Origin: Mytilus edulis
Taxonomy: Eukaryota
Length of the DNA: 64,000 nt
NCBI RefSeq assembly: GCF_963676685.1
Contig: NC_092351.1
Span: 9,362,001 to 9,426,000 of the forward strand
Reading direction: 5' to 3'
Part shown: one piece after another, positions 1 to 27,303 of the stretch
Layout of the letters: the number at the start of each line of letters is the position of its first letter
Numbering within the stretch: position 1 is the stretch's first letter
Program-made: the position numbers and the translations under genes
The notes under the pieces: generated by a model
The model's input: the letters and a program-made list of their open reading frames with translations, nothing else
Databases searched by the model: none
Told to the model about the DNA's origin: nothing

Positions 1-1542
1 TGGGAAGGAGCTGGAACAGAAACACTAACTATTTTGAAACACTTCGGGGCTCTAAGTGTTCCTGACAAGTTAGGTCAATTACCATGCCAGGTTGCTTATT
101 TTAACCGTTACAAGGAAGCATTTGATAACTTATGTTTGTGCAAAACTAACGTTCACGGTGACGTAATGGCTAACTTTTGTGTTAAAAGTGAAACAAGACT
201 AATACAAACGTTCACGGACTTGCAGTTTGAAGATTTAATAGAACGGTTTAGTAGATTTCGTGGTAAACTGAGATCTACACTTCTCAATTTACCAGACCTT
301 GGTCATGTGTCATTTCAAGAAGAAGCACACATGATTTATGCTTTTGTCAATAACCTAGTTAGCAATTTGTGCAGACAAATTGCAGAAACAGATAGACTTT
401 TAGCGAATATTGTTGTCGAATCAGGCAGCGTGGGTGAAAGAACAAAAGTTGGAAGACCAGATGAATTTGATTTTGTATGTATTTTTCAAGAATTTAGTAG
501 ACTTTGCGAAGTAGATGAAACTCTCTCCTCTGAAAATCCTGGATTTGCATATTTGAAATTAAAGTCAGAATATGTTAATGGTATCGATCAAGATTATTTT
601 AATGCCGATGGGTATTTCCAGACGCATTCTGTTTGGCATAAGTGTCAAACATTACTAACAGAACTATTGCAAATAGGTAATTTTTTCAGTCATCCAAATG
701 TAGTTTACTGTACAGAGCAAAGAACACCAAACTTTACAATAATGAGACCTACATGTCATTTCTCATTTTATTGGTCAGGACCATATTTCAAAAACATGAA
801 AATAAACGTTGATTTGGTACTAGCTTGTCAAATAGAAGGGTGGTGGCCACAAGCAACGAAACTGGAAAATCTGCCCAGTCAACTTCAACGTAATGCTCTA
901 CAAGAGGGGTGTATACTTATACTTCAAACCGAAATGAATGAAAATAAACACCAACTTCGAGTTTCTGCTTTGAATGCCGAGACAGCCTTGGTGAAATTGT
1001 TACCTCAAGTAGCTCGAGATGCATATGTTGTTTGTAAAATACTCTGTGATGAAAGAATATGTCCAAGTGTATGTGAGGAAGGAGAAGAAGATGACTGTCA
1101 TGACTGTAAAGAATATGTTACCAGCTATCAACTGAAGACGTGCATGTTTGAGGTCTTTAACAATTTTTATAATGAAAATATATCTCATGGAGAGGCAAAT
1201 TCTGAGGCTAACCTTCAGGACTTCACAGTTCAAATTCTCAAAACATATAAGAAGTATTTAACACTAGAAAACTTACCGTCGCATTTATTTCCCTGGCAAA
1301 ATGTGTTTACATTTTTAACATCGTGTCATTATAACGACGAACATCTGCGGGTTTTATGTTCGATGAGGAAATTGTTCACGACAATAATACTGGTGCTTTT
1401 AGGGGAACCACAAGACTTCAACGATGTTGATGTTGAAAGTATAAAGAACCATTGGAATGAATCAGAAGATGACAACATGATATCGGCAACAGAATATTGG
1501 AATAAATCAGAAGAAATGATAAGGGAATTAGAGGAGACGTAA
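1..1542 (+). CDS. Mab-21/cGAS-like receptor (cGLR) nucleotidyltransferase, 5'-truncated by the window; N-terminal ankyrin repeats inferred from the paralog
   Basis: The frame is open from base 1 (WEGAGTETLTILKHF...), so the TTG at 34 is not the real start. It has the NTase signature VESGSVGERTKVGRPDEFDFV (about 415-477), a third acidic residue in INVDLV (811), and Mab-21 C-terminal motifs LRVSALNAE, TSYQLKTCMF and LPSHLFPWQNVF. The paralog at 31326-33968 shows ankyrin repeats upstream of the same sequence. Confidence 0.9.
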   Translation, partial: WEGAGTETLTILKHFGALSVPDKLGQLPCQVAYFNRYKEAFDNLCLCKTNVHGDVMANFCVKSETRLIQTFTDLQFEDLIERFSRFRGKLRSTLLNLPDLGHVSFQEEAHMIYAFVNNLVSNLCRQIAETDRLLANIVVESGSVGERTKVGRPDEFDFVCIFQEFSRLCEVDETLSSENPGFAYLKLKSEYVNGIDQDYFNADGYFQTHSVWHKCQTLLTELLQIGNFFSHPNVVYCTEQRTPNFTIMRPTCHFSFYWSGPYFKNMKINVDLVLACQIEGWWPQATKLENLPSQLQRNALQEGCILILQTEMNENKHQLRVSALNAETALVKLLPQVARDAYVVCKILCDERICPSVCEEGEEDDCHDCKEYVTSYQLKTCMFEVFNNFYNENISHGEANSEANLQDFTVQILKTYKKYLTLENLPSHLFPWQNVFTFLTSCHYNDEHLRVLCSMRKLFTTIILVLLGEPQDFNDVDVESIKNHWNESEDDNMISATEYWNKSEEMIRELEET

Positions 1543-3321
1543 AATTAAATAAGTTCTTTTCTGTCGAATAGTTTCAGAAAGTTAAATTAAAAAAAACAGA
1601 AACGAAAAATAAGTATGTAAATATAGTTCTGTTATAATAGAACCTTTGGTATTTTAGAACCGCACATATATGATCAACCTAGCTACGATTTTAAGACATT
1701 TTCTCCCCATTGTATGTGTATTATTATCACCCTTGGTTCGATCGACAGCTAAAAAACAAGGATTGCCAACAAAAGATACCGCGTGAATTTGTATGCCTAT
1801 TCTTTTATTTTCATTTTGACAGACATCAGTTATTTACCAGCCATCGTCTAATGACATAGGTTACAATCAACACTGTTAATATGTGAAACTGTTTGAGCTG
1901 GAAAATGTGAAGTAAATTTGTTCGGAACAGCTTTTTTGTCTCAGTTTCTAAAGGTATATCTAGGGAAGAACGAATACGTGAAAGTTTGTACAGCAATTCT
2001 GAAACAGAGCAGTGTTACTGATACTCGACTATACACATTTTAAGAAGGTTCATTTTCGAAAGGTTTAAATGAGAATAAATCTTTTTAGCTAAAATAATAT
2101 GTTTTATTAACCAATTTATTGGCGCATATTTGTACTACCTTTTCTATTTAACTTCATTTCTCTACGCTTTTGTATATTTTAGAGAAACTATTCATCAAAA
2201 TGCTAGTTCTGTTAAATATTCGTTCAAACAATATTTATTTATTTTTTATTAAACAATATTAATAAATCAATTGGTTTATATCAAAATAATACATTTTTTA
2301 CTAAATCGACAATACAAGATAGATACTTCACTGATACAGGGACTTTCTATTTTCTTAGTATAGAAAAAGTAAAATCATAAAAATACTGAACTCAGAGGAA
2401 AATCTAATCGGAAAGTCCATAATCACATGGCAAAATCAAATGACAAAACACATCAATAACGAATGAACAAGAACAGTCATATTCCTGACTTGGTTCAGGC
2501 ATTTTCAAATGTAGAAAAAAGTTGATTAAACATAGTTCTATAGCGCTAAACCTCTCACTATTTTGACAGTCTCATCAAAGTCCCTGACTGATAAGTAATC
2601 TCATCAAGACCTCAATGTATCGAATATAAGGCTTAGTGGTATGTGCAAATATGAAATACATAATTATGTAATATATACAAGAATGTACTTAGCAACACAA
2701 TAATTAAAAACTAACATTGGTAATCCATGTTTCGTTGATCTCCAAGGTTTTATTGAATTCTTGTTTAAAATTAAACAAAAGATACATTTGCTGAACATCA
2801 ATTTCTGTTGACTGCATCCGAAAAGACATTTGGCTTTATTATAATGTTCTAATTATTCAAACCATGCCAACGTAGCTTTATATATCCTGATTAAACAAAA
2901 ACAAATGTGTTGTAGGGGTAAATTCAGTAAAGAAATATACGTCATCAGGGACCGCCAATTTGGTGGAGAGCTTTCTTTATAAAACTGAAGACATGTGCTC
3001 TTCTGATTGGTAGATAATGTTTGTAATAAATATTTTTTGGTAGATAGATCAAAACTAGAGTTGAAAAAAAAATGCTAAATGTACTTATTTTTTTCCCCTA
3101 CAGGGTTGACAAGTAATGGGGGTCAGTATAGGAATTCAGTACGAATCTAAATTGTTTGTAAACAAGGCCATGTGAATGCTCAAAAATGCCGCATGACTCT
3201 ATGCTTTTATTGTTGCAAAAGATAGTGCTACATTTGTATTTCATGGATGATATATGAAAGATTCTAATTTCTACAGGTGAATCAGGTATAAATTTATTTC
3301 CATACCTAGATTAGCATTTAA

Positions 3322-5420
3322 GGTGGCACGGTAGTATTTGCATTCCAGAATTTAGGTTGCTCTTTTGTGTACCCTACTTAGGTAAATGTATCTAAACAGT
3401 GTGATTGGACAAAAAATACAGTATCAACTGAACATACTTTCCCAAACTGAGGGATGAATCAGGTGTAGAAAAATATGAAATAATAAATAATTTTACATAC
3501 AGATGAAAATGAATTTTTGAGAATTTGTTTTAAATTTTGTATTCACTGCACCATAAAATACCTAAAAGTACTAGTGGCCTTAGGTTTTTAAAAATAGCAA
3601 AAAAAAAAGTAAACGGTCATGATACTTATTCAAATTCATTTCTGAATAGTAAAATGAAAGTACTTCAGTTAACTGTGAATGTAGAATTTTTTGCAGTGTT
3701 AGAAAGTGGTGAAAATTCTAAAAAGGCTATCATTATCCCTTATGGGCAAGGAAATACTACCGTGCAACCTGAAGGGGGATATATACTTTTACACTAACAT
3801 CAATAAAGGAACTTTTTTTTACCTATGCAATTTGTTAGTTTATCAATAAAAAGTTGATTAAGGGCAACTATGATAAAAACAAGCCTTAAATTCCACCCCT
3901 GAGAGTAAAAATTGCTGATTCAGCAAATTTTGCCTGATGTGTAGGTAATAATGTAAAAATTTACGTAGAAAGTAGAACTTCATTATTTTTATGTAACTTG
4001 CAAAACATTTTTAATTATAAATGCTCGCTCTAACTTTTCGCAGTGTCTGACACATGTGCAACCACTGAAATTTGAGACGCGACATTCTTCTGTTGCATGT
4101 ACATCCTATTATTTTCACCGAAATAAATAAATTGCATAATTTCTTATTTTGTTCATTACAAGTACATTTGTACAGCTATACTAGTTTTCTTGAGGTTTAA
4201 TTTGTAGTTCTGACGTAAAATGACACCAGTAGGAGCTTTTGGGGAACCAGTAAGTGGTTAAGGGGTTCTTACTTAGTCATTTATCTCTCATATTGGTCTG
4301 AAATAGAGATAGAAATAGGGGTTTCTGTACATTGACTAGACATTTTTTTTCACAAAGAATGTATTTATGATGCTATATCAGCAAGATTAAATGGTTTATT
4401 CATTTTCAATGCAAATACCATTAGTTGTTAATATTTTCTGACAGTGAAAAGTACAATAGAGGCAAATTGATTATGTAAGGGGACATAAATCAACTTAATG
4501 CATACATGAGAAATAGACAAACAGTCAACTTAGAGATGTATTCTAGTACATGTATTGTCAAACAGATTTTGGAATAATAGTTAACTGCAATCTAAAGACT
4601 CTTGTTGTATTACCCTCATAATCTGGAAATGTTTAAAGTAATATAAGGCATGCTGTAAAATGTGGAATGGACTTTAATATCAGTTTTCATGATTTGGTGC
4701 TTAAACTGTTTCTTTTAGTCAGATTAACCATAAACATAGTTGGCAATCCAATAATTCCTCCTGAATCACCATGTTTGACTTCTGTGTTGATTTGAAACAT
4801 AATATATTTGGGTTTTGTTCACTCCTTAAGTAAAAATGGTAAAATGAAGAAAAAGTAATGTTTCGTTTGTTTTGGTAAGAAATGAGTGCAGACTAGTATT
4901 CTTTATTGTAATATGTTCTAAAGTAAGAAGTCTATGAATCATAGGTGTCATGACTGGTTTCAAGTTTGTTATGTCTTGGTTAAGGTGGCACGGTAGTATT
5001 TGCATTCCAGAATTTAGGTTGCTCTTTTGTGTACCCTACTGAGGTAAATGTATCTAAACAGTGTGATTGGACAAAAAATACAGTATCAACTGAACATACT
5101 TTCCCAAACTGAGGGATGAATCAGGTGTAGAAAAATATGAAATAATTTTACATACAGATGAAAATGAATTTTTGAGAATTTTTTTAAATTTTGTATTCAC
5201 TGCACCATAAAATACCTAAAAGTACTAGTGGCCTTAGGTTTTTAAAAATAGCAAAAAAAGTAAACGGTCATAATACATATTCAAATTCATTTCTGAATAG
5301 TAAAATGAAAGTACTTCAGTTAACTGTAAATGTAGAATTTTTTGCAGTGTTAGAAAGTGGTGAAAATTCTAAAAAGGCTATCATTATCCCTTATGGGCAA
5401 GGAAATACTACCGTGCCACC
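3322..5420. mobile_element. Non-autonomous composite-like DNA transposon (KolobokP-like): two ~440-bp terminal direct repeats, each with its own TIRs, around a 1.2-kb non-coding core
   Basis: Direct repeats 3322-3769 and 4984-5420 are near-identical. Each starts GGTGGCACGGTAGTATTT after TTAA and ends AAATACTACCGTGC(A/C)ACC. The whole 2.1 kb is absent at the paralogous site (~35736, agcattaaagtc). Confidence 0.8.
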
Positions 5421-5545
5421 TAAAGGCAATGGGAGATTTTTTTTACTGAATTTACCCCTGTATTATAATTATCAGAGTTGTCCTTCCTTTGACGATCATA
5501 GAATGTTTTACTAAAAATGGCATTGAGGATAATTTCAAAATAGTT

Positions 5546-5815
5546 AAAAAAAAAAAGGGCAACAGTAGTATACCGCTGTTCAAAACTCATAAATCTATGG
5601 ACAAAAAAACAAAATCGGGGTAACAAACTAAAACTGAGGGAAACGCATTAAATATTAGAGGAGAACAACGACACAACATTAAAATGTAACACACACAGCA
5701 ACGGACTAAGCATTAGACAACATCCGATGAGAATAACCAATATAAGATCAAAACCAAATACATGAATTTGGGATAGAAAAGTACCGTGAAACGTCTTATA
5801 GTAATGTGAATTCAC
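5546..5815 (-). repeat. Short interspersed repeat insertion (retroelement 3'-end-like), copy 1 only
   Basis: Starts with an A-run followed by gggcaacagtagtataccgctgttc. Absent at the paralogous position ~35858. Boundaries approximate. Confidence 0.6.
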
Positions 5816-7252
5816 ACAGTTTTCTTTGTTTTTTTTAGAGCGGGCAGATTTTGGTATATAAATTACAGTACATTTTTCAAAAGCTAAAATACTCCAATAA
5901 CAAATAATAATGATTACTTGAGAAATTGTATCTTTCAAGATAATACAGAACATATGAGAATAGTCTAAGAACATACAGTAGACTAACAACAGATTTTTTT
6001 TCTAAAGTGTTCTCTTGTTAAAAAAAGAATGAGAACAAAAAAAGAACAAGCACTGGTATGTTTATTATAATGCATGGATTTCATGACATGATTATTTTGA
6101 GTAGAATATTCATTTTATGAAAACTTGTATGATTGAAATAATTGACATGATCATGATATGATCAAGGACAAAGTATTACTATACTTACTATTAAAACCTT
6201 TTTTTATTTACTGTAAACTTAGAAATTATTGCGATTTAAAACAAATAAATATCCGAAATACGAGATTAACTATTGCAATTTCAGGGAAATCTGAATACAC
6301 AGATATATGTACCACATGAGAGTTCTTATAACTGCGATACTCACCCAGTCGCATTATTCGCATTTTAAAAACATCTTGCCATAATTTCTGTAATAATTAT
6401 GTTGGGTCATTAATCCGATTAATCTATAATGTTATCTTTTTATTCATAGATATGCATTGATACTAATAAAACTATCCACAAAAGTCAGAATGAAGTAAAT
6501 TTAAGAAATTATAGGTCATCATATGGCCTTACAAAATGATCGTAACAATACCATCAATAAGATTTAATCATTAAGCATTAAATCAATTAATAAATTTAGA
6601 GTATCGTCTGCTAAACTAGAGTTAACTTTTCTTTAATTTTGACGGACTTAAGCGTCTTTTGTTAACCTACATTTTTCATAAGCGGTTTTCCACTTTCATT
6701 TGGTATAAAATCGCATGCTTTTCCTGATTTTGATTTGAACTCTGAAGGAACACAAAAACCCACCTAGCCCACCTTTGAGAATATTTTTCTGGTGCTTCTT
6801 GTATATTTTCAGATATTGTCAAAAGAAGCGTCATGGATTGGGCAGAATGTTACCTGAGTACATAGTTTAACTGAAGGGCTGAATTTATCACAGTTGGCGT
6901 CTGGTAGCCCAGTCGCTAGTTGGAGAAAACATATGATGGTTACCCGTCAATGTTTTTATCTTGGAAATTAATGAGAAATTGTTGATGAATGCAAATTCGT
7001 TGGCCGGTTGATACATAGTTGAACTGGCCTAATAAATCCATGACAAAAAATTGTCAAAATTCACACTTACTATTTGTTGTTTTTTTATGATCATATATTA
7101 GTTTGTCTTACAATTTGTTTTCATTTGTATAACGAAGTTAATCTGGAGGCGTTGGAAATATTACGAGGGATTTCAACGAATTTGGGTTATCTTTTATCTG
7201 GTATATCGTATTCCTAAATTGACTTCTATTGGTTTCTTTCGAATATTTAATA

Positions 7253-7390
7253 AGTGAATATATGCATTAACTTAAGGGTCACCATACGGCCTTCAACAAT
7301 GATCTTAACCAATACCATTAAGTGAATATATGCATTAGCTTAAGGGTCACCATATGGCCTTCAACAAATATCGTAACCAATACCATAAGT
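7253..7390. repeat. 68-bp tandem repeat, 2 units
   Basis: Units start agtgaatatatgcatt at 7253 and 7321. Confidence 0.85.
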
Positions 7391-9054
7391 GCACACATAC
7401 AAAATGATTGTGACAAGTATGTGTTTATTATTTTGTTGTGTACCTATCAAATGCAAATATTGTTTGTAAATGAACAAAAGATACAAAATAATATTGAAAC
7501 GGTATAAAATATAAAGAAAATAATTGCTAAGTAACTGTTGTAATTATATATTGAGAAAATCAATCTTTACCACGCCTAGTTCCCACGGTCATATGATAGT
7601 ATACTGATGTACAGAATTCAGTCAAGATGTACAGAAAACAATATGGAGGAAGAAATTAGCATTTTAAATACGATAACACTCATAAATATGTCTCCAATAC
7701 AATTACATCTTAAGTATATAAACTGAGAACTTCATTGCTATATCTGTAACTTGTTTACGTAACAAACACTTGTTATAGTCACCTTAATGCTCAATTGTTC
7801 CTCTCTTGTTAATTGGTTGGTTTTAGTTTATGGGTTAAAACCGTTTTATCACGTCTTTGGTGTTCTGTCTATAGACTCTCATTATGCGTCGTAATACATG
7901 ACTTGCAAATCCAGAAGTAACATAGAAGTATGGAACTCTCGTCTACAGTTACAAAATTTAGTAATCTATATCATATTGCACATTTACGTACATAATAAAA
8001 GATATTTGGCCAAATTTATCAATTTGACATTACAGTGGTATTCTTGAAAATCGCCTGTCCCGAATCAAAAGCCCGAAATTCATTGGTTGTCGTTTTTTGC
8101 TTTGTTACATATTTGTATTTCGATCCTTGCTTGTACATTATTTAGACCGTTAGTTTTCTATATTGAATTGTTTTACAATTGTGAATTTGGGGCCTGTCAA
8201 TGCTGACTATGCGGTATGGGCTTTGCTCATAATTATTGACGGCCGTACGATGAACTATCATGGCTATTATTTTCTGTGTCATTTAGTCTCTTGTGGAGAG
8301 TTGTCTCATTGGCAAATTGGCAATCATACCACAATCATACCACATGTTTCTTTTTTTTTATATTAATCGATACTAACATTTTTATCAATTTGAGATAATT
8401 TCATGACTTACTTAACATGTATTGTTATCTAGTTATTAATATGAGTAGTCTGATATCCTATCAATCCCTATATGTTTGCATTGTACAAGTTTGTGGTTAT
8501 CTGTTTCTGTTGACCTGATGCAGACACTTATAGTTGGTTCGTTAGTGGAAATTTGGAAACAGCCATACTTTCAGCAATGACAAGTACTTTTAGATACGAA
8601 CTTTTGGTTCATGTGTTTATCAGAGTTTTTCTGCTTGAGTGGAAACCTCTTCAAATGACTTTTTCAATTTGTTTTTTTTTTTTGTTTTTTTTTAAGTAAT
8701 TTTCTAGTGCTGCTTGGTTGAATAACGCTACTGCTAATGACATGGTTTATTGATATACATTTCTGTTTTTAGTTAATAAAAGAAAATATTAAGAAACTTG
8801 GTTTCCAAGTCCCTCGTGCAAATATGACTTTGGATGTTTTTTCTACTATTCTATTTATTTCCCTTTTGGACCAAAAATGCAACAGAATTGACCTCTAGCT
8901 TTCAATACACATTTCCTTTCTGGGGCATTCCTGATTATAGTAAATCCAGAAAAAGCGTTTATGTGAGCACCAATAGTATAAAGTGTTGCTGTTGTGCAGT
9001 TATCCTACTCTATGAGGAGAATTGGAGGGTTAAACGCTTACAGAAAGGTCTAAC

Positions 9055-10360
9055 AGAGGGACGAAAGATACCAAAGGGACAGTCAAACTCATAAATCTAA
9101 AACAAACTGACAACACAATGGCTAAAAATGAAAAAGACAAACAAACAACAGCACACATGATACAACATAGAAAACTAAAGAATAAACAACACAAACCCCA
9201 CCAAAAAAACATAGGGGTGATCTCAGGTGCTCCTGATCCACATGTGGCACCCGTCGTGTTGCTTATGTGGTAAATAGTCTAATTCGGTAGGTCACATTCA
9301 TGAAAAGGAAGGGGATTGTAGTTACGACGTAAGGAACATATCCGATATCATTTGTGAAACGGTTATTCCATAACGGTCAACCAACTCGTGATATCGTCCG
9401 TAAAATTTACGAAGGGATGATTTCAACTTCACCATTTTGGAACTCTTGGTTTAATAGTTTCCTTGTGAGCAGCATCCCTCTATCAAGAAAATCATGATAG
9501 GAAATACAAGCACGGAAATATCGTATCAATTGGGAGATATATACCCCGTATGCAGGTTTGCTGGAATAATGCTACTTAGAAATAAAAAGTTCAAAATTGG
9601 ACAGCTGGAATCATCTGTTTTGTCGTAAAGTTTTGTTTTCAACCGACCCTAATTGTCAATTTCTAGATGTAAGTCAAGATATGAGGTCGACTTAACTGTA
9701 TCTGTAGTATCCTTTATCTCTAGCTCGATGGGATAGATGCGTTCCACATAGTCACCAAATTTTGAATTATTTAGTGAAAGAACTTCATCTCTATAGCGGA
9801 AAGTGGAGTTAAAGGATATTGCTAACTTCTTATCTTTCTTCCTCAGAAGTTTTTGCATGAAGTCAGCCTCATAATTATAAAGAAACAAGTCGGCACAGTT
9901 TGTTCCCATTGGAATGCCGACAGTCTGTTGAAAAACACGTCCTCCGAACGTAACAAATATGTTGTCAATCAAGAAATCAAGCATCTTGATAATATCAGTT
10001 TCAGAGAATTTTTTGTTTGAATCAGAGTGATCCTTTACAAAGTAGGATTTATCCCACCCTAAGACAAGATATTTGTATCAATGTTGGCCATTCTTTTTTA
10101 TGAATCAAAGCAATACCAACTCTTTTAATTTGTCTTTTAGTTTGGAATGTGGAATACTTGTGTAAAGAGTAGAAAAGTCAAATGTTTTAATACTGTTACA
10201 GGCTGAGAGAGAGTTAGATTGTATGTACTCCATAAGATCTTTGGAATTCTTAAGTATCCACATCTGATTCACGCCAACTCTAGAATAGTTTCACAATAAC
10301 TTTGAAGCCCGTCTTTGATTGCTGATAAAATAGATGTTAATAATTTAGAAAAAGGTTTCG
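9055..10360 (-). mobile_element. Degenerate, 5'-truncated Penelope-like retroelement (RT fragment plus 3' region)
   Basis: ORF 9649-9984 reads FQQTVGIPMGTNC...ADLFLY.YE...FRYRDEVLSLNN...SYLDLHLEI, the PLE-type RT core with the catalytic YxDD decayed to YRDE and an internal deletion. Segment 9055-10623 is absent from copy 2 (ggtctaac|ctcggaac at 39118). Confidence 0.8.
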
Positions 10361-10473
10361 TAGACGACATTTATCGATTAACAATTCAGATCACCGTAAC
10401 TTCTGATAAATTATGACTTCTTGGTCAAATTGCTAGTGAATTCAGCATCTGTAATTAAAATTGCACAAGATTT

Positions 10474-10623
10474 GCAGCCTTTGGTCTCACATTTCAAAAT
10501 GCGACTGTGTTGTTGCAGCCTATGGTCTCACATTTCGAAATGCGACAGTGTTGTTGCAGCCTTTGGTCTCACATTTCAAAATGCGACGGTGTTGTTGCAG
10601 CCTTTGGTCTCACATTTCGAAAT
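10474..10623. repeat. 41-bp tandem repeat, about 3.7 units
   Basis: gcagcctttggtctcacatttcaaaatgcgactgtgttgtt starts at 10474, 10515, 10556 and 10597. Confidence 0.9.
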
Positions 10624-12509
10624 CTCGGAACATTCAGTATATGTCTAAATCACTCTTAAGATCAAGTGGATGTTGTTGGTTGAAGTCAGCTGTATCAAAT
10701 ATGTTTGTTATTTGCTTTATCATAAATGAAGCTGTTACTTTTCTGTTTCGATTTTAGCCACGTTTTTGTCAATACCTGATTGCAGGTTTTTCTGATCATT
10801 GTAAAACGGTGAAATATTGCTTTCACATGCTTGTCCGTTTATATTTGATGATTACTTTCTTACCTTTGTTTTTATACATATATGTCTATACATGCAAAAT
10901 TTGATACACTTAAAACTAAAGTAAAAATTGCAATGAAATGAAATGTTGAAAATGAATCGTAGTGTTTGAGTTTGACTTCATTGAACTAATATATTATTTT
11001 CTAAAATTAGAATAAAAAGCATTAGTCACTTTGATAGAAAGTGATAAATTTGTCAGTAAAATTTTAACAAGAAACAAAACACAGTGTGACATGACACCAT
11101 ATTTATATTAGTATACACGATAAAGAGGAAATAGTAGACGATATCTGACATTTTATAACGTTCTCCCACTAGTTGTTCTCATTTTATCACGAAAATAGTC
11201 TTATGTTTTGGAAATTAGATATTTATGTGTATTCTTACTACCATTAACCCCTATCCAGGTAGATTAAATATGACACATAGGTTTATTTTCAAAAGAATAT
11301 TTAGGTACTACGAAATAGATGAATTTAAAAACGGTTGAAGGTTGTATTCATAGTATTATCAATGTATCGCATACGAGTATTCATTTAAAGTACATGTATT
11401 ACAACGGTTACTCACTCTACCGGACAGGGGTGAGATTTTAGCGGCTGGTGACCATAAAGACATTGATGTTTTATTAAATTTCGATACAAATGAATTAATT
11501 ACAAAAACTTAATTAAGCTCTTTACAGAGCTTTTAACTGACACAAGATGTTAGTATAACAGACATGATGTGATTTGCGAGAACCGGTACAGATTTTAATC
11601 TAACTGGTAAATCAAATGACTTGTATAGAAATAAGAATAATGATGTAGTTCGATTGCAAATCGAACATATAGATATAGGGAGATGCGATATGAGTGTTAA
11701 TAAATACAACTCTCAATCCAAGTAACAATTTATAAAAATAAACAGTTTAAGGTCAAAGTACGCCTCATCACGGAGCATTGGCTTACACCGAACAGCAAGC
11801 TATACAATGCCTAAAAAATTATAAGTGTAAAACCATTCAAACGGTTATGTCCACCTGACACCAAAAGACGAAAAATTAAGTAACTAATGATCATCGTTAG
11901 GATAGAACGTAACATGAACAAAACCATATAGCATAGAGGCCATTTAAGCACAGTCTTGACAAAGACAAAAACAAATTAATCGAGAAAATTTATAACCTGA
12001 TTCATGTTAAAAAACAATCCAACGTAAAACAGCAAAATACAACAAAAAAAACCTGGGACAGGGGTGTAACAATCAAATGTTATATCCGTTAGAGCTTTAT
12101 TAAAGTTTACAAACTGCAAAAAAAATCTTATAAGAAAAGAATAACACTTTATGTTATTGCATGAAAGTTATTTGATTGTTACGGATAATAAAATAATATC
12201 TTTTACATCAGAGAATCATTAGTTGTGTTTGTCCTGTATTGAAGCACTTTAATATCCCTTATCAATTTACAAATCTTTAATATAACGATTAAACGAATCC
12301 TCATTATCTTCAAAATAGTGGTCTTATCTAAAATGTCAAGCCATAAAATGCTTGACTGTAGATTATTGCCGATTTGCTAAAGTAAATCATTACAATAAAA
12401 TATTTAAAATGTAAAACATCGCAATGTATGTTTAATTTATGTGAAAAAAAGCATGCCAACAATATAATTCAAATATATCAGGCTGAGTATAATATATTAT
12501 ATGTTTTCA

Positions 12510-12810
12510 ACAATGATTGATGAAACAACAAACAGTAGTTTCTCCTAGTTTATAAATATGTTGAAAGCTACACGATTCCAGCCATATTTATTGTTAAAGC
12601 AACCAACAGTAGATTCTCCTGTTTTATACATACTGTGAAAGTTACAAGATTCCAGCCACAATGATTGTTAAAACAACAAGCAGTAGGTTTTCCTGATTTA
12701 GTATTATGGTGAAAGCTACAATGTTCCAGACACAATGATTGTTAAAACAACAAGCAGAAGGTTTTCCTGATTTATAGATATGGCGAAAACCACAAGAATC
12801 CAGCCACAAA
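12510..12810. repeat. ~74-bp diverged tandem repeat, about 4 units (paralog at ~40857-41200)
   Basis: Recurring caatgattgttaaaacaac...ttcctg...aaagctaca...ttccagcc; two unit starts at 12659 and 12733. Confidence 0.8.
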
Positions 12811-14124
12811 CCGAAGATTAGGACGCTATAGAGATTTTACCAAGTACCTTTGACTTTTTTCAAAAGTTAGAAACCTTCCACTCGTGTCATATCTTACTCG
12901 TATAATAACAACTATAGAATTCCTACACCTTCTTATAAATCATAAACCCAAACGTTGCATCGCAACATTTTACACTTTAATTAACAAAACCATACACTAA
13001 GAAAAATACACAGCCATAAAATAATTTAACATGTACTTTATGCTGTTGAAAATCACAATTGTGTGATTCAGGATTAAAAATGCGTTATTTCTGAACCAGA
13101 TCTATCTTTGCCACTGAATTATAGAAAAATATTATCCAACAAGCAACCAATCAATCAATCTGATAAATCCGAACAATGCTAAGCAAGCACTGATTGCATA
13201 AACACTTCATTTTGCAAACCAAATTAAATCACATAAAAAAATAGTTAGTTGTAATGTATTGCCATTAAAATTTAAAAATTAACTTTAAAGATTTGAACAA
13301 ATTGCGAGGAATGAAATCCTATTTTATCACACAAAAATATTAACAAGGATGATGATCATACAAGTATTTTATAGCTACACGAGAGACTCAAACAACATAC
13401 ACTTAAGAACTTTACTTTAATAAATCAGGTTGTTAAAAATACATAAATCATAAATCATAGATTAAACATATATAACTAAGTATGATATACTGATAAAGAT
13501 TTTTTTTTGCTTTTCATGCGCCTCGAACAAATATTAAACAATTAATGTTATCTATATAACCGAGCTTATTGTGCTTCTTTAAATCTGTATCCATTTCCTC
13601 TATAGTTGAATCAAGGCAATTAAATTCATATTTATCATTTATTTCTGGTATATTTTAATTATAGTGTGTATTAACATGTTTTTACTTTTATTTGCTGAAT
13701 AGCCGTGTTTACATAAAAAGTTATAATATGACTGTTGAACGAAGAACCACACTATAGTAATTTCGTCTTAAGCAATTATTGTTCACCGTGTAGACGTCAA
13801 CAATTAAAAAAAAACTAACCGTATAGTCGGGTACAGTCTCTATTTTCATTCTCAATTTTATTCCTGAGTCAGAAAAAAAATATTTTGCACCACGGTTTCA
13901 TCTAAGATTGCAACACAGTATATATAAAAAGTAAATTCACAAAAATACTGAACTCAGAGGAAAATCAATTCGGAAAGTTCATAATCAAATGGCAAAATCA
14001 AATAACAAAACGCATAAAAACGAATGGACAAGAACTGTCATATGATGTATTATGTCCAGGATTAAGTATGAAGATTTAGTACGCCTAGGATCAGCTGATC
14101 CTATCTTTTGTTAAGTGGTATATT

Positions 14125-15548
14125 TGTAACACTCCCAAACGTGTCCTTCCCCCCAAACGTGTCCGATTCCCCCAAACGTGTCTTTTCTCCCTAAACGTGT
14201 CCGAAATGTACAATATTCCCCAAACGTGTCCGAATTCATAACCCCCAAACGTGTCCGATAAATGTTATTCGCCAAAACGTGTCCAATATTTAACGCCAGA
14301 ACGTTTCATGTCTTTTAGCGTTAATACATGTATCTCCTAAATAAAATCGCTGATAACGTTGACGACAATTTTATAATGGGGACACAGGTGACAAAGTTTT
14401 TATTTAATAGCTTTATTTAATTAAATGGAGGTTTTTAATGAATATCATAATTCAAAATTTAATCTGTAATTGTTAATTAATTTTTGACTGAAATTGCTTA
14501 TTGTTCAGTTGCAAGTATTTCAAACTCATTAAGAGCGAACCTGCACATAGTCATAGAGTTGAATTAATCGGTGACTTTGTAAATTATTTTGTACTTATAA
14601 ACTCCAATGATGCGTTTTAAATTTATCCGAATATTGCCTGGCGGGAGTTAAGCCGCATTTTTTTTTAAACTTTTGTTAATAGTTCTCCATCTGAATTTGT
14701 GTGTATTTCATAAACTCATCAAATCATAAACTGGTTATCCGTTTTTTTGATAAATTTTAGGTTTCCAGCATCACTAAAGAGACACGATCAAGAGACATAA
14801 CGTCCAGTGCCAAATATTTCATGCATTGGTTTTATAGATTCTTTTTATCAATATGAATGTTATGTGATCAACGCCGGTTATTAGTGGTTACCGTAATTAC
14901 AAATTTAATTTGCACTGTATAAATTCACTTTCTAGACTGTTGATAGCGTATTGTCCAGTTGCAAGTACTCTATGGATATTTAGAGCGAAATAGTTTTACA
15001 TTTGCTGAATAAATTAACTTTAAACTGATGATTGTATATTGTCCAGTTGCAAGTATTTCATATATATTAAGAGAGAACATAGGTTACAAGTTTTTATTAT
15101 TTTACATTTGTACTGATGCATTTATTTTAGAATGTTGATCGTCCAGTTGCCGGTGTTTCACAATATTTAGAGAGAACATACAAATTTTAATGTTCAGAGA
15201 AAGGGACACTTTCATCCGTTAACTGTACAGTTTAACTAAACATGTTTGCTTACAATTTACATACGACATAGCCGAAATGACGCCCCCACTTTTATTTTTC
15301 GTGAAATGGTAAAATTAGTATACATTAATGGAATAGCAATAACCAAATAACGCTTGATATGGACACGTTTTTGGGATTGGACACGTTTGGGGGTTTGTTG
15401 AAAATCGACACGTTTGGGCGTTTATACAAATCACACGTATTGGCGATGTTTTTAACTAGACATGTTTTGCAGTTCAGTGACGTCAATATGGACACGTTTG
15501 GGGGAATCGGACACGTTTGGGGGGAAGGACACGTTTCTGAGTGTTACA
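14125..15548. mobile_element. Non-autonomous TIR element with TGT...ACA termini and 4-bp TSD (Ginger-like)
   Basis: TATT|TGTAACACTCCCAAACGTGTCCTTCCCCCC ... GGGGGGAAGGACACGTTTCTGAGTGTTACA|TATT. The ~180-bp TIRs are built from repeated CCAAACGTGTCC motifs. No transposase ORF. Confidence 0.8.
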
Positions 15549-17198
15549 TATTTACTATGCAGTAAATTTAATATGTTTTTTTCATTCGTATTAAAATGTG
15601 ACAACTCAAAATCTTACAATCCCCAGCTGAAAACCGAGGCTAACATTATACCATTACAAAAGCTTTGAAAGGCATTGAAGAAAGTAATTGTTATCCTAAG
15701 TGTTGCATGCTTAAACGTGCTAGCTATTTCCAAGTCTTAAAAGTCGATCGTTTGGTCTTATCAATTTGTATGGAATTCTCGGAGTTTGAAATTAACAAGG
15801 AACAAATATGTGTAGACCTTTTTTAAATTATGAATACAAATCAGCTTTCTAATCAAATATATATCATTATTCAACAATGACTTCTGACGGATGTCGCATT
15901 TTCACTACAAGCAAGTAATTCGAATATACAAGACTCAAATATTTTATCTCCTTTTTTTCAATTTGGTTTTATTTGTTTTTTGAAACATTTTCTGAAAACA
16001 AAATTACTGTTGTCCATTTCAATAACCGGTATTGTATTAAAGTTTCTATTAACCTTATATAGATTGACACTTCACAACTAGATCGAGCTAGAAATTGTCA
16101 TGGATTTTAGGTTGATATTCTACCAATCAACATTGACGGTCTTTTGAACAGTTATCCGTCAAACAGTACAACACAAATTAACATTGTAACAATATAAGGT
16201 ACAGGTAAGGAGATACTATCATATAATAAAGTAATCTTATATTTCCACCAATTAATGATGCTATCAGTCTATTTTGAACGGTACTTAAGGTGAAATATTC
16301 AAATTTAAAAAAAAAGTCATTTTATTTCTTATACAATACAATGTTAACGGTTTAAATTCTTTAGAATGTTTTTATTTTTTTCAAAAAAGCAATTATTAAC
16401 TTTTAATAACATTTTAAATAACATCTTCATATAATATTCAATTACATCTAGTATATCAGATGTCTTGAACAGCTTTTTAATTTGACCATTTGGTTCTGAA
16501 AGCATACTTCGTATGAATCATACGAACAGGAAATAGAAGGATCATGCATTCAGCTGACATAAAGGGGTCTATCTCGTCTAACGTCAACCTCTAAGTTAGA
16601 CTGTCACTGTGTAAGTCGTCATATAAACATATAGAAGATGTTGTATGTTTGCCAATGAGACAACTATCCACCACAGTTCAACTGAAGTGGGTGTAAGCAA
16701 TTATGGGCAAAGGCACGGCATTCAACAATGAAAACCTGTACCGTTAAGACGGCTGTAAAAGAACAGTATAACAATATAACACATTAACAATTCAATTGGG
16801 AAAACTAACGGCCTAACTTTGTAAAATAATTTACGAAAAACAAATAGAATAGACATGAATCAACGACAACGATGAAACTACAGGATCTTGACTTTGGACA
16901 GTCACATAAGGAATATGTTTAGCGGAGTTAAAAATGTTTGCGATCTCTCAATCCTCCCCCTAACGACTTGGGTCTTTTGATGGAGCATTGCTTTTTAATT
17001 TATTGTCGTTTTATTAGATAGTTTATTGTACAATAATACTTGCTCATGCTGGTAGTAATATACTGAAATCAGCACTTGAAAAAGAAATTTGAAGATCCTG
17101 ATTTGATTTTCAGCGATTAGAACGAAGGCTTACATTGATAATGTCTAGGCAAGTAAAATTTTTATCATTTTGTTTTAACAAAATTATGGTTTCATACA

Positions 17199-17545
17199 GA
17201 AAAGAAATTGAGAACGAAAACGGCGAATATGTAAAAGAGACAACAACCCAGCCAAAGAGCAGACAACAGCCGAAGGTCATCAATGGGTCTTCAATGTAAC
17301 GAGAAACTCCCACAACCAGAGGCTTCCTTCAGCTGGCCCCTAAACAAATATGTATATTAGTTCAGTGATAATAAACGTCATACTGAACCCCGAATTATAC
17401 ACAAGAAACGTAAAATTAAAAATCATACATGACAAAGGCCAGAGGCTCCTGACGCAAAATGTAGCGGGGTTAAACATGTTTTTGATATCTCAACCCGTCC
17501 TCTATACCTCTAGCCAATGCAGAAAAACAAACACACAACATTAAG
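17199..17545 (-). repeat. Dispersed repeat family A (aattgagaa..gg...tgtcaaagagacaacaaccc...); this insertion is copy 1 only
   Basis: Related copies at ~18505, 18757-18908, 28367-29000, 45235 and 50840. Empty site in copy 2 at ~44513. Probably retroelement 3' ends; family not established. Confidence 0.65.
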
Positions 17546-19122
17546 CCGGTTAGTGTCAGGGTGAAGTTTTATTTTTGAGTCGTTATAAAGACTGAACTAA
17601 TTTGTTATAACGACCTACCTTATCTAACTCGTTGGTGTATTTGGTTGAATTGTTTTACATTTTTTCATGTCGGGTCATATCATTATTTGACTTTACGGTA
17701 TGGGTTTTGATCATTGTGTTGACAACCTTCGGAAACCTTCACGTTATGTAAACTCTGTTGATATAATATATAGCTTATTCTTTCTATAACTTACTGATTA
17801 TAAAAAGAGTACTAACAAGTTAGAATTTCTTACCAGAATACCCATTTATCTGTTTATGTTATTGCATCATCATGTTATCTTGTGTTAACTAAGTGATTAC
17901 ATTAACACGTATCACCACCCTAAGCGCAACAAAAATCTGACAGATTTTGTTTGAGTCAAATCAACCCGGAACGTATATAAACAGTATAGTATTTCTTCTG
18001 ATGCAGTAATAAATAAGCAATTGACACCTATCAGGATGAATCTTAGTAATAAACTGTTAATAAATTATTTTTACTTTTATGGTATTAAAAAAATCTTTAC
18101 ACATAACAAACTTGAAAACAAACACAGAATTTGAGGCCAAAATACTGTACATTTTCTAATAGGAATATACACGGTATCAACACCTTTTGATATTGTCGTT
18201 CAACTTACTGGAACGGTTCCAACAACAACATTAATCCTGTTTACCTTATCCATGTCATTTTCTTTTTTTTCCTCACAAAATAAAGGTCCTTTTTACACAT
18301 CCTATCACAAAAAGAAAGAAGCTGAAGATTTCATGTCACTGGGTGCCCGTATATTCTTCTGTTCGGCCATTCGTTATATACATTATATGTCCTCTGTTTT
18401 AGATTTTCATGGCATTGAATGGTATTTGTAATCTCCTGACATAAGTTGTGTTTACTGAGTGAGCAATCGCTATAATTAATAGGTTTTGAATGAAAATTTA
18501 AATTTAAATGGAAAATGAAAATGGGGAGTGTGTCAAAGGGACAACAACCCGACCAAAAAGTAGAAATCAGCCCAAGGCAATCAATGGTTCTTCAACACAG
18601 CGGGAAATCCCACATTCAGAGGCAACACATGTTAAGTCGGTCAAAAATTTAACTAAAGCCGTATGCATTTTAAGATTTATCAACATTATACTATTAATTT
18701 CGTTTGACGTAAGACGTTTCTTTGCGATGTTTCAACTAATTGTACCTCGATATAGAATAAAATTGAGAAAGGAAATGGTGAATATGTCAAAGCGACAACC
18801 ACCCGACCATAGAGCAAACAACAGCCGAAGGCAACCAATGGGTCTTCAATGTAGCGAGAATTCCCGCACCCGTAGGTGTCCTTCAGCTGGCCCCTAAAAT
18901 ATGCATAATAGTCAACATAAGAAGCTATGTCATTTTGGAGAGATACGATCTACCCAATCTGATAAATAAGTAAAATTACTAAGAAAAACAGAACTCAAAG
19001 GAAAATTAAAAAACTGAAACTCTCTCATCAAATGGCAAAATCAAGAGCACATCAAAGAAAAAAAGATGTATTTATTTGGCTGTGTTGTGTATATTGAAAA
19101 AGACTCGGCAATGTCCGCTACG

Positions 19123-19345
19123 AAAAAGTAAAACCAAAAATAAATACTGAACTCCGAGGATTATTCAAAACGGAAAGTCCCCAATCAAATGGTAAAATCA
19201 AAAGGTTAAACACATCAAACGAATGGATAACAACTATCATATTTCTGACTTGGTACAGGCATTTTCTATTGTAGAAAATGGTGGATGGAACCTGGTTTTA
19301 TATATAGTTAAACCTCTCATTTGTATGATAGTCGTATCAAATTCG
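19123..19345. repeat. Dispersed repeat family B (aaaaagtaaaatcacaaaaatactgaactc...gaggaaaat...ctgacttggtacaggcatttt)
   Basis: Related copies at ~2365, 13927, 18970, 34795, 42115, 43537, 45720 and 45880. Confidence 0.75.
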
Positions 19346-21440
19346 GACGGGGATCCGAAGACAAATCAACATTCTTCTGTGATGCGAGTTTCACAACTTT
19401 ACGACAATGTATAGGGTTTATTGGTGGCCTGATACAAAGAAAAATTGTTCGCCTTTTCCAACATTTCATCAACTTTTCGTGGCTCGTCTTGTTCCATAGA
19501 AATCGACCAATTATGAAAAACCAATATTTGTGGTGTCATTTTTGTTATTTGTGTTCTCGTTCTGGATATGAATGAAAATACTTTCAACTGGACGTTATCT
19601 GAATAATAATCGATTAATCGCGATCAATATAATTGAGGTTCCTGGGATCCATATAGATGTTACAAAAAAGTGTTATCAATGTATGGAATTTACGACCAAT
19701 AAATAGGGCCTTCATATTTTTACAAAATATACAGAACAACTCAAAAATCATTAGCTAATTAATAAATAATAGTGTTTTCCTCTTTGGTATGTATGTACAT
19801 ACAGCCAATTTTTTCATGTTTGTGACATACAGTGTACACTACAAAAAAAACCCACAAAGTGTAAAGAAAGATTTGAGTTCAGACATAATGATTGTTTATT
19901 GCAGTGCATATGCATCATTTCTAGGGAAATATCTTGAATTCTTCCTCGGTTCATCTTATTGGCAGTGTCAACAAGTGTCAACAAGAGCTAAGTTTAAACA
20001 TCTGTATCGATTGTTATAATATAAATATCACATCGCAAAACTGTTTCTCCTTTTTTTTTTTGAAAGGTATAATTCGTGCTAGTATCGTCCTTAGTAATTT
20101 AGACAATAAATTAGAAATATGAAATTACTTTTCTACTTTAGTGTATAACCTCGATTCTTTAGCATACGACAGAGTACATCTCAGATGTACATTACGGGCA
20201 AATGTGAATTGAAAAAAGTGACTATAAGTATCATATTTCTGGTTTAAAAACATATATTCGTGATATATTATGAATTTTTAGATAAAAAGGAACGTTATAA
20301 AATGTCAAAATATCAGCTTTTATTACCCTTTCAAAAAGTGTAAAAGGTTTGGTGGGCTACATACTCAGGTGTTCAGGAGATATAGTATTCCTTCTTTATA
20401 TCACAAATTATAATATGATCTTCGTCAGCTTTGTGACTGTTCGATGTCATTACCTACAAACATTAGAATATACAAGACTTTAAAAAAATAAGATGTCTTT
20501 AGTAATCATCGCAATAATTCTATTGATTGATTGCTTGTTGGTAATTAACTCACATTAAAGCACTCTCAGTTTGAATTGTTGGAAAACACTGGAGTACCCT
20601 AAGAGAACCAATGACATTCGACAGAAACACTTGCAATCATATAGTCAATTGAAATAGGGATCGAACTCACAAACTCAGAGTTTGCAGGCTAGTTTATATA
20701 CACTACATGGATCAAGGCAAACGAGAAAGTTTTATTGAATTTTCAGACATGACTGGAACTGAATCAAAGTCGATTTTTGTGCTAAGAAGTAAATGAGTTG
20801 CGTTAAAAAAAAACTATGAAATACTATATGAAAAATATCAAAAAAGAAAATTTGGCACACTCGTAACTGATATAATATAAAAGCACGAGATACAGAAAGA
20901 TGGAAACAATACTGAACATCCCTTTTGGTATAATATTCCTTACCAACTACAAAAACCTAGCATTTTTGTTAAACATATTTTCTTATTTAATCAAATGGTC
21001 TTTTTATAAGAAATCTTGATGTAGCTACATGTATAGGTGTTGTAGTTGTTACAGTTTTTTTTAATATACACCAGCTAGACAAGCAGCGACATGATAAAAG
21101 CCATATTATATTACTTTTATAAAAAATGATGCAAAAGATACCAAAGGGACATTCGAAATTTATAGAAAATCAAATGACAACGGAATGGCAAGAAGAAAGA
21201 AAAAATACCAACAGACAAACAACGGTTACCAAAGCACACAATTGAAAACTAAAGACTGAGCAAAACGGACTGGACTCCCTACAAATCCCTGGGGAGATCT
21301 CATGTGCTCTGGTAATTAGTTATGTATATTTTATGTGATACCATATAACTTCAAGTCATCAGCATCCGAATAGGACATTTGGTACTATCGTGTGTGTTTA
21401 AATTATCTTTTGCATCAAATCATAGTAAATGATCAATCAT

Positions 21441-21634
21441 TGTCGTGAATATAGGCCAAGAGACTTTAGATCGTTTTCTTATGTAATTGTTTCCCGTACT
21501 TTCGCGTACACTATTGTTAATGTAACGTAACGTTATTGTTACGTATATATATATATCATCTTACGATCATAAAGCATCTGAACTAGCAAGACGTTATTTT
21601 TCTTCCACTACAAAAGTGAATAACCCTCAAGATA
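21441..21634 (+). repeat. 5' LTR (TG...TA)
   Basis: tgtcgtgaatatagg...taaccctcaagata; identical by eye to 27110-27303. Confidence 0.95.
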
Positions 21635-21635
21635 T

Positions 21636-21647
21636 TGGTGCCGTGAC
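21636..21647 (+). promoter_or_regulatory. Primer-binding site complementary to the tRNA-His 3' end
   Basis: TGGTGCCGTGAC lies one base after the 5' LTR and is complementary to ...GUCACGGCACCA. Confidence 0.85.
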
Positions 21648-21664
21648 GAAAACCTCAACTAGAG

Positions 21665-24600
21665 ATGAGTTCGAAACTCAAAACAGTACGAGCCGCACAT
21701 CGACGAGCAGTAATAAAGCTACTGAAAAAAGCAGACCCGACAGAAGAACCGCAACAAGATGTTGTCAACCTCAAATCCATGATGGAGCTTATCAAAACCA
21801 AGAAACAGACATTGTCCGACCTCAATGAGAAGATTTTAGAATCTATTGAAGAAGAAGAAGACCTCGACGAAGAAATTGAAGAAGTTGACAGATACGAGTT
21901 AGAGATTCAAATTGGAATAACGAAAATTGAAAAGTTCATAAAAGAAGTAAGTGTTAGTCAGTCTAAAAATCAATCAGCTCTTAACCCTAATGCATCAGAT
22001 TTTATATGCAATAACCCCAGCGTTCAAGAACATTCTAACCAGATAATTTTCAACTCAGAGCAGACAAGCCTAAGCCAGTCAAGCATGCCCACCTCCACAG
22101 TGTCAAGTCATTATAACAAATTGCCTAAACTCAACTTGCCAACTTTCGGCGGAAATCTATTGGAATGGTCAGCCTTTTGGGATTCCTATAATAATTCCGT
22201 ACATGAAAATCCTTCATTGAGTGACGTGCAACGATTTAATTATTTAAAATCGCAACTTTATGGAGAAGCTAGCCAGTGTATTTCGGGAATGCAAATGACT
22301 AATACAAACTATAATCAAGCAATACAAATTCTACACGAGAGATTTGGCCAACAACACAAAATAGTAAACGCATACATGCAAAATTTGCTAAATTTGCCTG
22401 CACCAACGCCCGGAATTAGGGGACTGAAATCGTTCAGTGACACAATAGAAAGTAATATACGTGAATTAGAAGGAATGGGTCGATATCAGGAATCGTACGG
22501 AAGCCTTTTAATACCACTAATACTCAACAAGCTTCCATGTTTTGTCAGACAAAACATTACTCGAGACCACGGTAATGATGATTGCGATATTTCAAGTTTA
22601 CGCAAAGCAATAAAGAAAGAAATTTGTATCCAAGAGGCCGCTAACGCCAATCCTATTGAAACCGATATTATCCCCACCGCATCGTTCGTGACAGAAACTA
22701 CAAATAAAAGATGGAAGTCAACAGGGTCTAAAGATAGTAACAACAATAGTTCCGTTAAGACTAAAAGGCCGTGTTTGTTTTGTCAAAGCCCGCATCACCC
22801 AAATGAATGTACAAAGATCACCGATATAAACGCCCGCACCCAAATCGTAAAGGAAAAACGAGTTTGCTTTAACTGTTTCGGTAATCACAAGGTTTCGGAA
22901 TGCAAGTCAAAATACAGTTGCCGAAATTGCAGTAAGAAACATCACAGTAGCATCTGCCGTAATAATTTACTAAATGAAAACTCCACTTCAAATGAAAATA
23001 AAGCCGTAACAAAACCTGTCAACGAAGAGCTTCAAAGTACCACAGAAACAAAGAGCGCCGCTATGCATTCTGCAGTTACAGCACATACCGAAATTCTATT
23101 GAAAACCGCCGTAGCGCCCGTATGGTACCATGATGAAAGTGTTATGACTAACATTCTACTCGATGAAGGCGCCCAGAATTCATTTATTTCTCAAGAACTA
23201 GTAGAGAAACTCCATATCAAACCAACTGGTATAGTAAGCATGCAAATTTCTGCATTTGGCGGGAAAGAAGGTGATGTACGCAACCTGGAGAAAGCAACAT
23301 TATCCATTGAGACCGAAAGAAAAGAAAGAATTCCAATGGAAGTAATTATTGTTCCAAAAATTGCCGCACCGATACATATGAAGAAACGGGTAAACATTAA
23401 CAGCTTGCCCTATTTACGAGGATTACAACTTGCCCACCCAGTCACGCAGGATGAAAAGTTTTCCATTTCACTTCTCGTTGGAGCAGACTATTACTGGTCT
23501 TTAGTACAAGATGAAATTATTCGAGGTGACGGACCAACAGCTGTTAAATCTAAAATAGGCTATTTGCTATCAGGACCACTGAACACAGATATCAACACTC
23601 AACAATGGAACTCTACGATGATGAATGTCTTAGTTGCGCACAAACCCGAGGAGTGCGATTTACAGAAATTTTGGGAAATTGAGTCGAGCGGATTAGAGGC
23701 GGATTCTGATGAAAACACAAAAAATGTACAAAACCTAATGCTTGAGTACCAAAACTCTAGCATAACATTTAAGGAAAATAAATATGTCGCAAAACTACCA
23801 TGGAAACAAGATCATCCCGAGTTACCCACTAATGAATATATAGCAAGAAGGAGGACCCAGAATGTTATAGATAGGTTGGCTAAAGATCCGGATATGTTAA
23901 ATCTATACGACAAGATTATCAAAGAACAGGAGATGAAAGACTTCATAGAAAAGGTACCCATTACAGAAATAGATCGCGAGCATGGAAGAATCCACTACAT
24001 ACCACACCATCCCGTTAAGAAAGATTCAAACACGACCCCTATTAGGATTGTATATGACTGCAGTTGCCATGGAAATCCAGATTTACCCAGCCTTAATGAC
24101 TGCCTATCTTCAGCACCACCTATTTTAAATAAATTGACAAGCATACTTACAAGATTTAGATTAGGAAAATATGGCATCACAACGGACATAGAAAAAGCAT
24201 TTTTACAAGTAAGACTTGACAATGATGACCGAGACGCCACACGTTTCTTTTGGTTATCCGATTCAACTGACCCAACAAGTGAATTGATTATGTACAGATT
24301 CAAAGTTGTTCTTTTTGGAGCAACGTGTTCGCCGTTTATTTTAAACGCAACATTACTGAAACATTTATCCACGAGTCAGAGCAAAGTAGCAACAATTCTA
24401 CAAGAAGATCTATATGTTGACAATGTACTATCTAGCATTAACTCGGAAGAAGCCACAATTAAATACTTCAATGAATCCAGAGAATTGCTAAAACAGGGAG
24501 GCTTCAACTTACGTTCATGGATGTCGAACAGCGACAAACTCAGAGATTTAGCCTTATCGGAAAAAGTACTGGATGCAGACAAGGTGACAAAAATATTGGG

Positions 24601-26959: not shown

Positions 26960-27109
26960 TAACTGTTCTAGGATTTTTGTGAAGGACAGTTAACGTAAAG
27001 TGAAATTACAAAAAAAACTTTCAATGTGATCCATTTATAGAACTTTAAAGTTTTGATTATTTATCATTTAAAATAATTTTATTTCTTATGCATTTTGAGG
27101 CCCCCAGAA

Positions 27110-27303
27110 TGTCGTGAATATAGGCCAAGAGACTTTAGATCGTTTTCTTATGTAATTGTTTCCCGTACTTTCGCGTACACTATTGTTAATGTAACGTAAC
27201 GTTATTGTTACGTATATATATATATCATCTTACGATCATAAAGCATCTGAACTAGCAAGACGTTATTTTTCTTCCACTACAAAAGTGAATAACCCTCAAG
27301 ATA
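27110..27303 (+). repeat. 3' LTR (TG...TA)
   Basis: Identical to the 5' LTR; preceded by gaggcccccagaa rather than a pure purine tract. Confidence 0.95.

Follow-up and report, generated by a model that had tools for sequence, protein, structure and literature searches.

Ankyrin repeats fused to a cGAS-like receptor (cGLR) are named in the text and in the Fig. 1C and 4C legends of Li et al. 2023 (PMC9980059), and three of the six accessions looked up in the supplement of that paper (VDI69555.1, CAC5412544.1 and VDI03470.1) are listed there as cGLRs with ankyrin domains and a pI of 5.4-5.8. The architecture is already known, and the catalogue includes an ortholog 97% identical to the protein described here. 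According to the accessible text and tables of the same paper, three Mytilus species encode 218, 119 and 55 cGLRs and 9, 8 and 5 STINGs, nucleic-acid-sensing cGLRs have a pI >8.5, and non-nucleic-acid ligands are proposed for acidic cGLRs. The screen reported there covered 140 enzymes supplied with dsDNA and poly I:C, of which 15 were marked active, and ligand-free activity was found for six cGLRs. The screen table contains the name Mytilus 0 times, i.e. no Mytilus protein was screened. It does contain four coral proteins with an ankyrin-like N-terminus and Mab-21 (XP_022799095.1, XP_027058778.1, XP_015747416.1 and XP_020624487.1; samples 84-87), which were screened as catalytic domains without ankyrins and are absent from the 15 marked active; an unlabelled row does not equal inactivity, as the 15 were "selected" from "many" active enzymes and most of the 140 are unlabelled. 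The accessible parts of two further papers describe other Mab-21 fusions in oysters (PMC8195603) and the binding of c-di-GMP by M. coruscus STING (PMC11190208). A functional study of an ankyrin-cGLR was not found in a literature search for which most subscription papers were beyond reach.

The window analysed here, a stretch of 64,000 nucleotides from Mytilus edulis, starts within such a gene (copy 1; Table 1). The ORF listing gives a 5'-open frame of 513 codons with a TAA stop at 1540-1542, which enters the protein inside ankyrin repeat 11. Tandem helix pairs stand in frame with the enzyme, and the upstream record of copy 1 adds 110 residues. We are confident, close to certainty, that the locus is a single-coding-exon gene for an ankyrin-repeat cGLR (ANK-cGLR), so that the identification given in the preliminary description, a bivalve fusion of ankyrin repeats to a cGLR with intact catalytic residues, stands.

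Table 1. Features of the 64-kb window, in order of position.
Feature	Position	Strand	Details
Copy 1	1..1542	+	3' part of coding exon; residues 379-891 of 891-aa form; 97% to P0001 over 513 aa
Ankyrin repeat 11 (end) and repeat 12	1..141	+	P0001 379-425; helix pairs in full-length model; Pfam Ank_2 310-389 on P0001
cGAS-fold catalytic domain	322..1398	+	Acidic; made up of a spine helix (322-390), the NTase core and a helical lobe at the C-terminus
GS motif, G142 S143	424..429	+	G invariant in 54/54 rows of alignment A2
E155-F-D157, two metal-binding acids	463..471	+	Both invariant in alignment A2
D271, third acid	811..813	+	Invariant in alignment A2
Duplication block 1	1..27929	+	Collinear blastn blocks 72-96%; later transposon insertions
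High-identity tract	927..2427 vs 33353-34850	+	98-99.7% between copies; 93-94% over 1-600, 81-96% for the distal blocks
450-nt element pair	3318-3775, 4980-5426		96%; 1.2 kb between them; each with 29-nt terminal inverted repeats whose first letters are TTAAGGTGG
142-codon frame	9649-10077	-	Reverse-transcriptase-like fragment by eye, no Pfam match; insertion absent from block 2
BEL/Pao LTR retrotransposon	21441-27303	+	Open 1770-codon frame (DUF1759, RT, Peptidase_A17, integrase)
Copy 2	31326..33968	+	Full-length intronless pseudogene, ATG 31326 to TAA 33968
Copy 2 ankyrin-repeat region	31326..32593	+	P0001 1-425; Pfam Ank on three pieces; tblastn 83-86% to P0001
Duplication block 2	32453..51090	+	blastn; block end 51090
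LINE	53431-59983	-	Open ORF1 451 codons (zinc knuckle), ORF2 1265 codons (endonuclease, RT, zf-RVT)

A full nucleotidyltransferase (NTase) signature had been claimed for the open frame, and it is there: the catalytic residues by which Li et al. 2023 define cGLRs in the accessible part of their paper (GS, [DE]h[DE]h and a distal h[DE]h) are all present, as G142-S143, E155-F-D157-F and V-D271-L. Read literally, their pattern h[QT]GS X8-20 ... X50-90 is matched by the first spacer (11); the second spacer is 111, and E-S stands ahead of GS. The 97% ortholog, whose letters here are identical, was accepted by the authors as a cGLR, and the active Cv-cGLR1 likewise has S before GS, so that they did not apply the pattern literally. 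C-terminal Mab-21 motifs had been claimed as well. The Pfam Mab-21 model scores 36.3 bits over residues 145-330, above its cut-off of 24.1, but Mab-21_C gave no match on copy 1 at E 0.1, and on copy 2 reached 15.7 bits, below its cut-off; among relatives it was matched in 21/54 and 16/52 members of two sets by profile scan. The catalytic domain of copy 1 (aa 100-470) is acidic, with a pI of 5.08, 29 K+R, 47 D+E and a net charge of -18, and its spine helix has one Arg and no Lys. Judged from pI and net charge, it appears to lack the basic ligand surface of the nucleic-acid-sensing cGLRs, which have a pI >8.5 (PMC9980059, accessible part). Pd-cGLR and Sp-cGLR2, acidic enzymes of the same paper, resemble it in their low pI and proposed non-nucleic-acid ligand, but differ in that the screen detected their activity with no ligand supplied. 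The C-terminal lobe contains an acidic Cys-rich loop (window 1060-1119, aa 354-373), of which just the first Cys-Pro is conserved across the family.

Structure prediction bore out the cGAS/Mab-21-like fold. The catalytic-domain model (residues 91-471, built on 77 sequences, pLDDT 93) had mouse cGAS as its best match (Z 30.4, rmsd 3.0 Å over 326 aligned residues), with both lobes covered (model 1-379), including the one in which Mab-21_C had gone unmatched. In Foldseek, cGAS structures came first (top E 9e-15), with Cv-cGLR1 (8GJW, E 1e-13) and Sp-cGLR1 (8GJY, E 3e-13) slightly lower; among the structure matches listed, cGAS entries filled the rows and no Mab21L chain was present. Cv-cGLR1 and Sp-cGLR1 have the fold, the GS motif and the acidic triad in common with copy 1, but are 18-19% identical to it and their solved chains are without ankyrins. 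Vertebrate cGAS shares the two-lobed NTase fold (Z 28-30), whereas copy 1 is 15-18% identical, acidic, devoid of the zinc thumb and preceded by ankyrins. The zinc-thumb insertion is a feature of cGAS; compared by eye, mouse cGAS has a His/Cys insertion following its RLSFS..E helix, to which nothing corresponds at aa 320-346 of copy 1. The full-length model of VDI69555.1 (pLDDT 88.8, pTM 0.87) opens with 12 helix pairs (residues 1-425), which a linker joins to the spine helix (486-508) and the catalytic domain, the latter extending to 844; its ankyrin part resembles AnkB repeats (TM 0.72-0.74 by target length). The pTM value, which is no contact map, fits a fixed arrangement of ankyrins and enzyme in the predicted structure.

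The closest proteins are all from Mytilus, namely VDI69555.1 of M. galloprovincialis, followed by proteins of M. coruscus and M. edulis at 82-88%. VDI69555.1 (97% over 513 aa; Ank_2 13-293, Mab-21 523-796, pI 5.42 in the accessible supplement of PMC9980059) has about 12 ankyrin repeats in 891 aa, in contrast to the 623-aa model of copy 1; the part of copy 1 in the window differs from it at 16 residues, of which 0 fall on GS/E/D/D. A phmmer search against 1.84 billion representatives returned 347 matches at E 0.001, the best 150 of which were analysed. GS and the three acids are kept in 127 of the 133 relatives, among these best 150 of 347, that cover the five active-site columns. Ankyrins were scanned for in the 103 of the best 150 with long N-termini and in three others, leaving out 47 shorter or partial proteins, and were matched in 105/106 (54/54 and 51/52), including Capitella and a coral-type protein; as the query held 1.5 ankyrin repeats, the set of relatives was not fully blind to ankyrins. 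Names are attached to 7 of 20 representatives looked up, Mercenaria, Mytilus, Mizuhopecten and Capitella among them, and Crassostrea virginica is also among the relatives. The four screened coral proteins have the family motifs by eye at about 25% identity to copy 1, and a coral look-alike (P0090) matches the window protein at E 1e-16. The 107 family domains with lengths of 330-450 aa have a median pI of 5.79; 86 lie below 7 and nine above 8.5.

Among Mytilus paralogs the ankyrins (84-92% identity) and the catalytic domain (87-91%) have diverged alike, so that the sensor shows no mark of an arms race. The linker between them, 60 residues long, is poorly conserved (top-residue fraction 0.22). 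A motif ahead of the spine was counted in 79/172 of all proteins gathered. Five members of alignment A3 carry zf-MYND (P0009, P0017, P0024, P0030 and P0032), and in P0009 and P0017 (>2200 aa) two separate regions align with the window protein, which suggests tandem cGLR domains. In a tree of 47 rows (quick method, no outgroup), copy 1 stands beside VDI69555.1, a single origin of the fusion being outside the reach of that tree. Metagenomes contributed seven loci among 166 pattern matches, six with one intronless frame of 894-961 codons and one a fragment; none of the seven reaches the Mytilus locus. A prokaryotic or viral origin was considered and dropped, narrow pattern scans having given 0 relatives among 72 matches in GTDB genomes and 0 among 82 in IMG/VR. 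A search for longer fusions was uninformative (87 generic ankyrin proteins, 0 listing Mab-21). In the ESM Atlas the first match is probably the protein's own cluster, and rows 3, 5 and 8 are clusters in which ankyrin repeats are fused to an MTPAP-like nucleotidyltransferase domain, a parallel ankyrin-NTase architecture.

Copy 2 lies 32,452 bp from copy 1 within one tandem segmental duplication. The tandem cluster of the preliminary description thus shrinks to a duplication of two, no third gene copy being present within the 64-kb window. Beyond it, the consecutive M. edulis accessions CAG2216463.1 and CAG2216464.1, whose contigs have equal lengths, hint that a third copy, 87% identical, may lie nearby. 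Copy 2 has two stops (31521 and 31928) and four frameshifts (near 31690, 31997, 32040 and 33141, the last a 14-nt deletion), and two shorter losses, 9 nt at about 31575 and 12 nt at 33075, leave the frame unchanged. Its ankyrin region had been described as lying in the same intronless frame as the enzyme; about 378 ankyrin codons without an intron do follow the ATG, but they are spread over three frames, broken by both stops and three frameshifts. With its active site reading DS...EIF (changes G142D, K149N, F156I and D157F), copy 2 is, from its sequence, a pseudogene with a dead active site. Its 3' part was probably refreshed by recent gene conversion, to judge from the identity of the tract shared with copy 1. 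The locus is a birth-and-death pair, comprising one copy with an intact catalytic domain and one pseudogene.

Upstream of copy 2, a promoter scan found 0 ISRE-type and 0 kB-type sites, and GAAA-N3-GAAA occurs twice against 0.37 expected. Splice-like sequence and low cover in two runs suggest a 5'-UTR intron at about 31090-31279, for which no splice joint was among those listed. The same upstream region holds very high-copy repeats (28367-29033 and 30783-30970; depth 10^4-10^6 in run X6).

The window holds further elements. The two LTRs of the BEL/Pao retrotransposon, 194 nt each, are identical, and its target duplication is 5 nt long (ATCAT); the element is absent from the second block and therefore a recent insertion. 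The 450-nt elements are either a MITE pair or the outcome of recombination between two MITEs (3318-5426), and the second block has at most one copy's worth of them. In the LINE, a gap of about 1.4 kb between ORF1 and ORF2 holds a 450-codon frame (57191-58543) with no Pfam match.

Whether the ankyrins of copy 1 extend upstream of the window had been left to a check of the flanking sequence. The database protein P0157 (623 aa) is, from residue 111 onwards, identical at every letter to the frame in the window; its first 110 residues are identical to VDI69555.1 at 109 positions and carry Pfam Ank_2 (42-120), and ankyrins therefore precede the enzyme in copy 1. P0157 begins, however, at Met269 of the 891-aa form, past Met1, 78, 120 and 152, which suggests an upstream break; one of the refutations set out in the preliminary description, copy 1 with the stops of copy 2 or without ankyrins upstream, is half borne out by this. 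Copy 1 could accordingly be a broken or truncated allele, in which the frame is closed or shifted somewhere from codon 152 to codon 269 and the product has at most 623 aa and about 4.5 repeats, and we rate the chances of this as even. The M. edulis model CAG2216463.1 jumps codons 25-234 and ends at 806, and in copy 2 a stop (codon 204) and a frameshift (near 228) fall into the interval 152-269. Against this, a gene model is not DNA, and a short one can be due to annotation or to an indel in the sequencing; copy 1 is lesion-free over 623 codons with all catalytic residues kept, and full-length forms of 891-893 aa occur in three Mytilus species. Contigs of other runs point the same way. Those matched to copy 2, from 4 of 24 listed public runs (X15, RNA on record; X1 and X13, guessed RNA; X6, guessed DNA), span ankyrin and catalytic parts with gap counts as for an unbroken frame in X1 (11, 2, 26) and X13 (2, 12), and of 3, plus 10 against 9 expected, in X15; these are counts rather than gap places or stop positions, and contigs are no proof of transcription. 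If copy 1 is truncated, both copies here may be non-functional, which would concern the locus and not the family.

For the family, we propose an ankyrin-gated cyclic-nucleotide synthase responding to a non-nucleic-acid cue. The ANK-cGLR would be inactive at rest, a protein or other non-nucleic-acid cue would bind the ankyrin array, and the array, coupled to the catalytic domain, would switch the enzyme on; the enzyme would then cyclise two NTPs to a cyclic dinucleotide (2'3'-cGAMP being the commonest product among tested cGLRs), which would signal via one of the mussel's several STING proteins. Taken as a whole, this mechanism has in our estimate as much against it as for it. In its favour we count the fold, the kept active site, the family-wide ankyrins, the acidic pI, the Lys-free spine, the pTM of 0.87 and, from the accessible part of PMC9980059, the unlabelled coral domains and the 5-9 STING genes per Mytilus species; against it count the nine family domains with basic pI, the equal divergence of ankyrins and enzyme, and the perhaps truncated copy 1. 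The preliminary description had seen in the ankyrins a protein-sensing or an autoinhibitory module, and the two halves of that suggestion fare differently: a non-nucleic-acid ligand is favoured because the catalytic domain is acidic, whereas simple autoinhibition is weakly disfavoured by the coral domains.

The best-surviving alternative, which we nevertheless find rather unlikely, is a nucleotidyltransferase outside STING signalling, which would make a linear oligonucleotide, nucleotidylate proteins or act in development or housekeeping, the ankyrins recruiting its substrate. Fold and triad indicate the chemistry and not the product, and non-immune roles are noted for Mab21L1-like proteins in the accessible part of PMC9980059; yet cGAS and cGLR1 enzymes head the structural matches, and duplication with pseudogenisation and the 55-218 cGLRs per Mytilus genome reported there fit, by general knowledge, immune genes. 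Less probable again is autoinhibition of the guard type, by which the ankyrins would keep the enzyme off until cleavage or modification by a pathogen frees it. The apparently fixed packing in the predicted full-length model and the poorly conserved linker between the modules would suit it, but the four ankyrin-less coral relatives are not among the enzymes marked active, though six other cGLRs in the screen showed activity without ligand (PMC9980059, accessible part), and simple autoinhibition is weakly disfavoured for that reason. A conventional sensor of dsRNA or dsDNA, with ankyrins that serve just for localisation or as a scaffold, is very unlikely, since although the nearest solved relatives by sequence are, weakly, Cv-cGLR1 and Sp-cGLR1 (E 0.003 and 0.014), the net charge is strongly negative, the spine is almost without basic residues, no zinc-thumb insertion is seen by eye against mouse cGAS, and the coral relatives carry no activity label although dsDNA and poly I:C were both given in the screen (accessible part of PMC9980059).

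The gene is catalogued and will not surprise a cGLR specialist; the interest lies in the family and not in the locus, and VDI69555.1 is a better reagent than the possibly truncated copy 1 allele. Reaching beyond the ankyrin-gated synthase proposed above, we offer tentatively, as a possibility we would doubt sooner than accept, that the ANK-cGLRs form a single ancient group of receptors found from corals through annelids to molluscs. A variable array of ankyrins would do the sensing in place of the nucleic-acid groove, and the group may represent a protein-sensing animal cGAS that has escaped notice because assays removed its sensor. As far as the accessible text and tables of PMC9980059 go, the family retains its ankyrin array along with an intact active site and was seemingly screened only without the array, and its value is as a handle on the question that Li et al. 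leave open there, namely what activates the acidic cGLRs.
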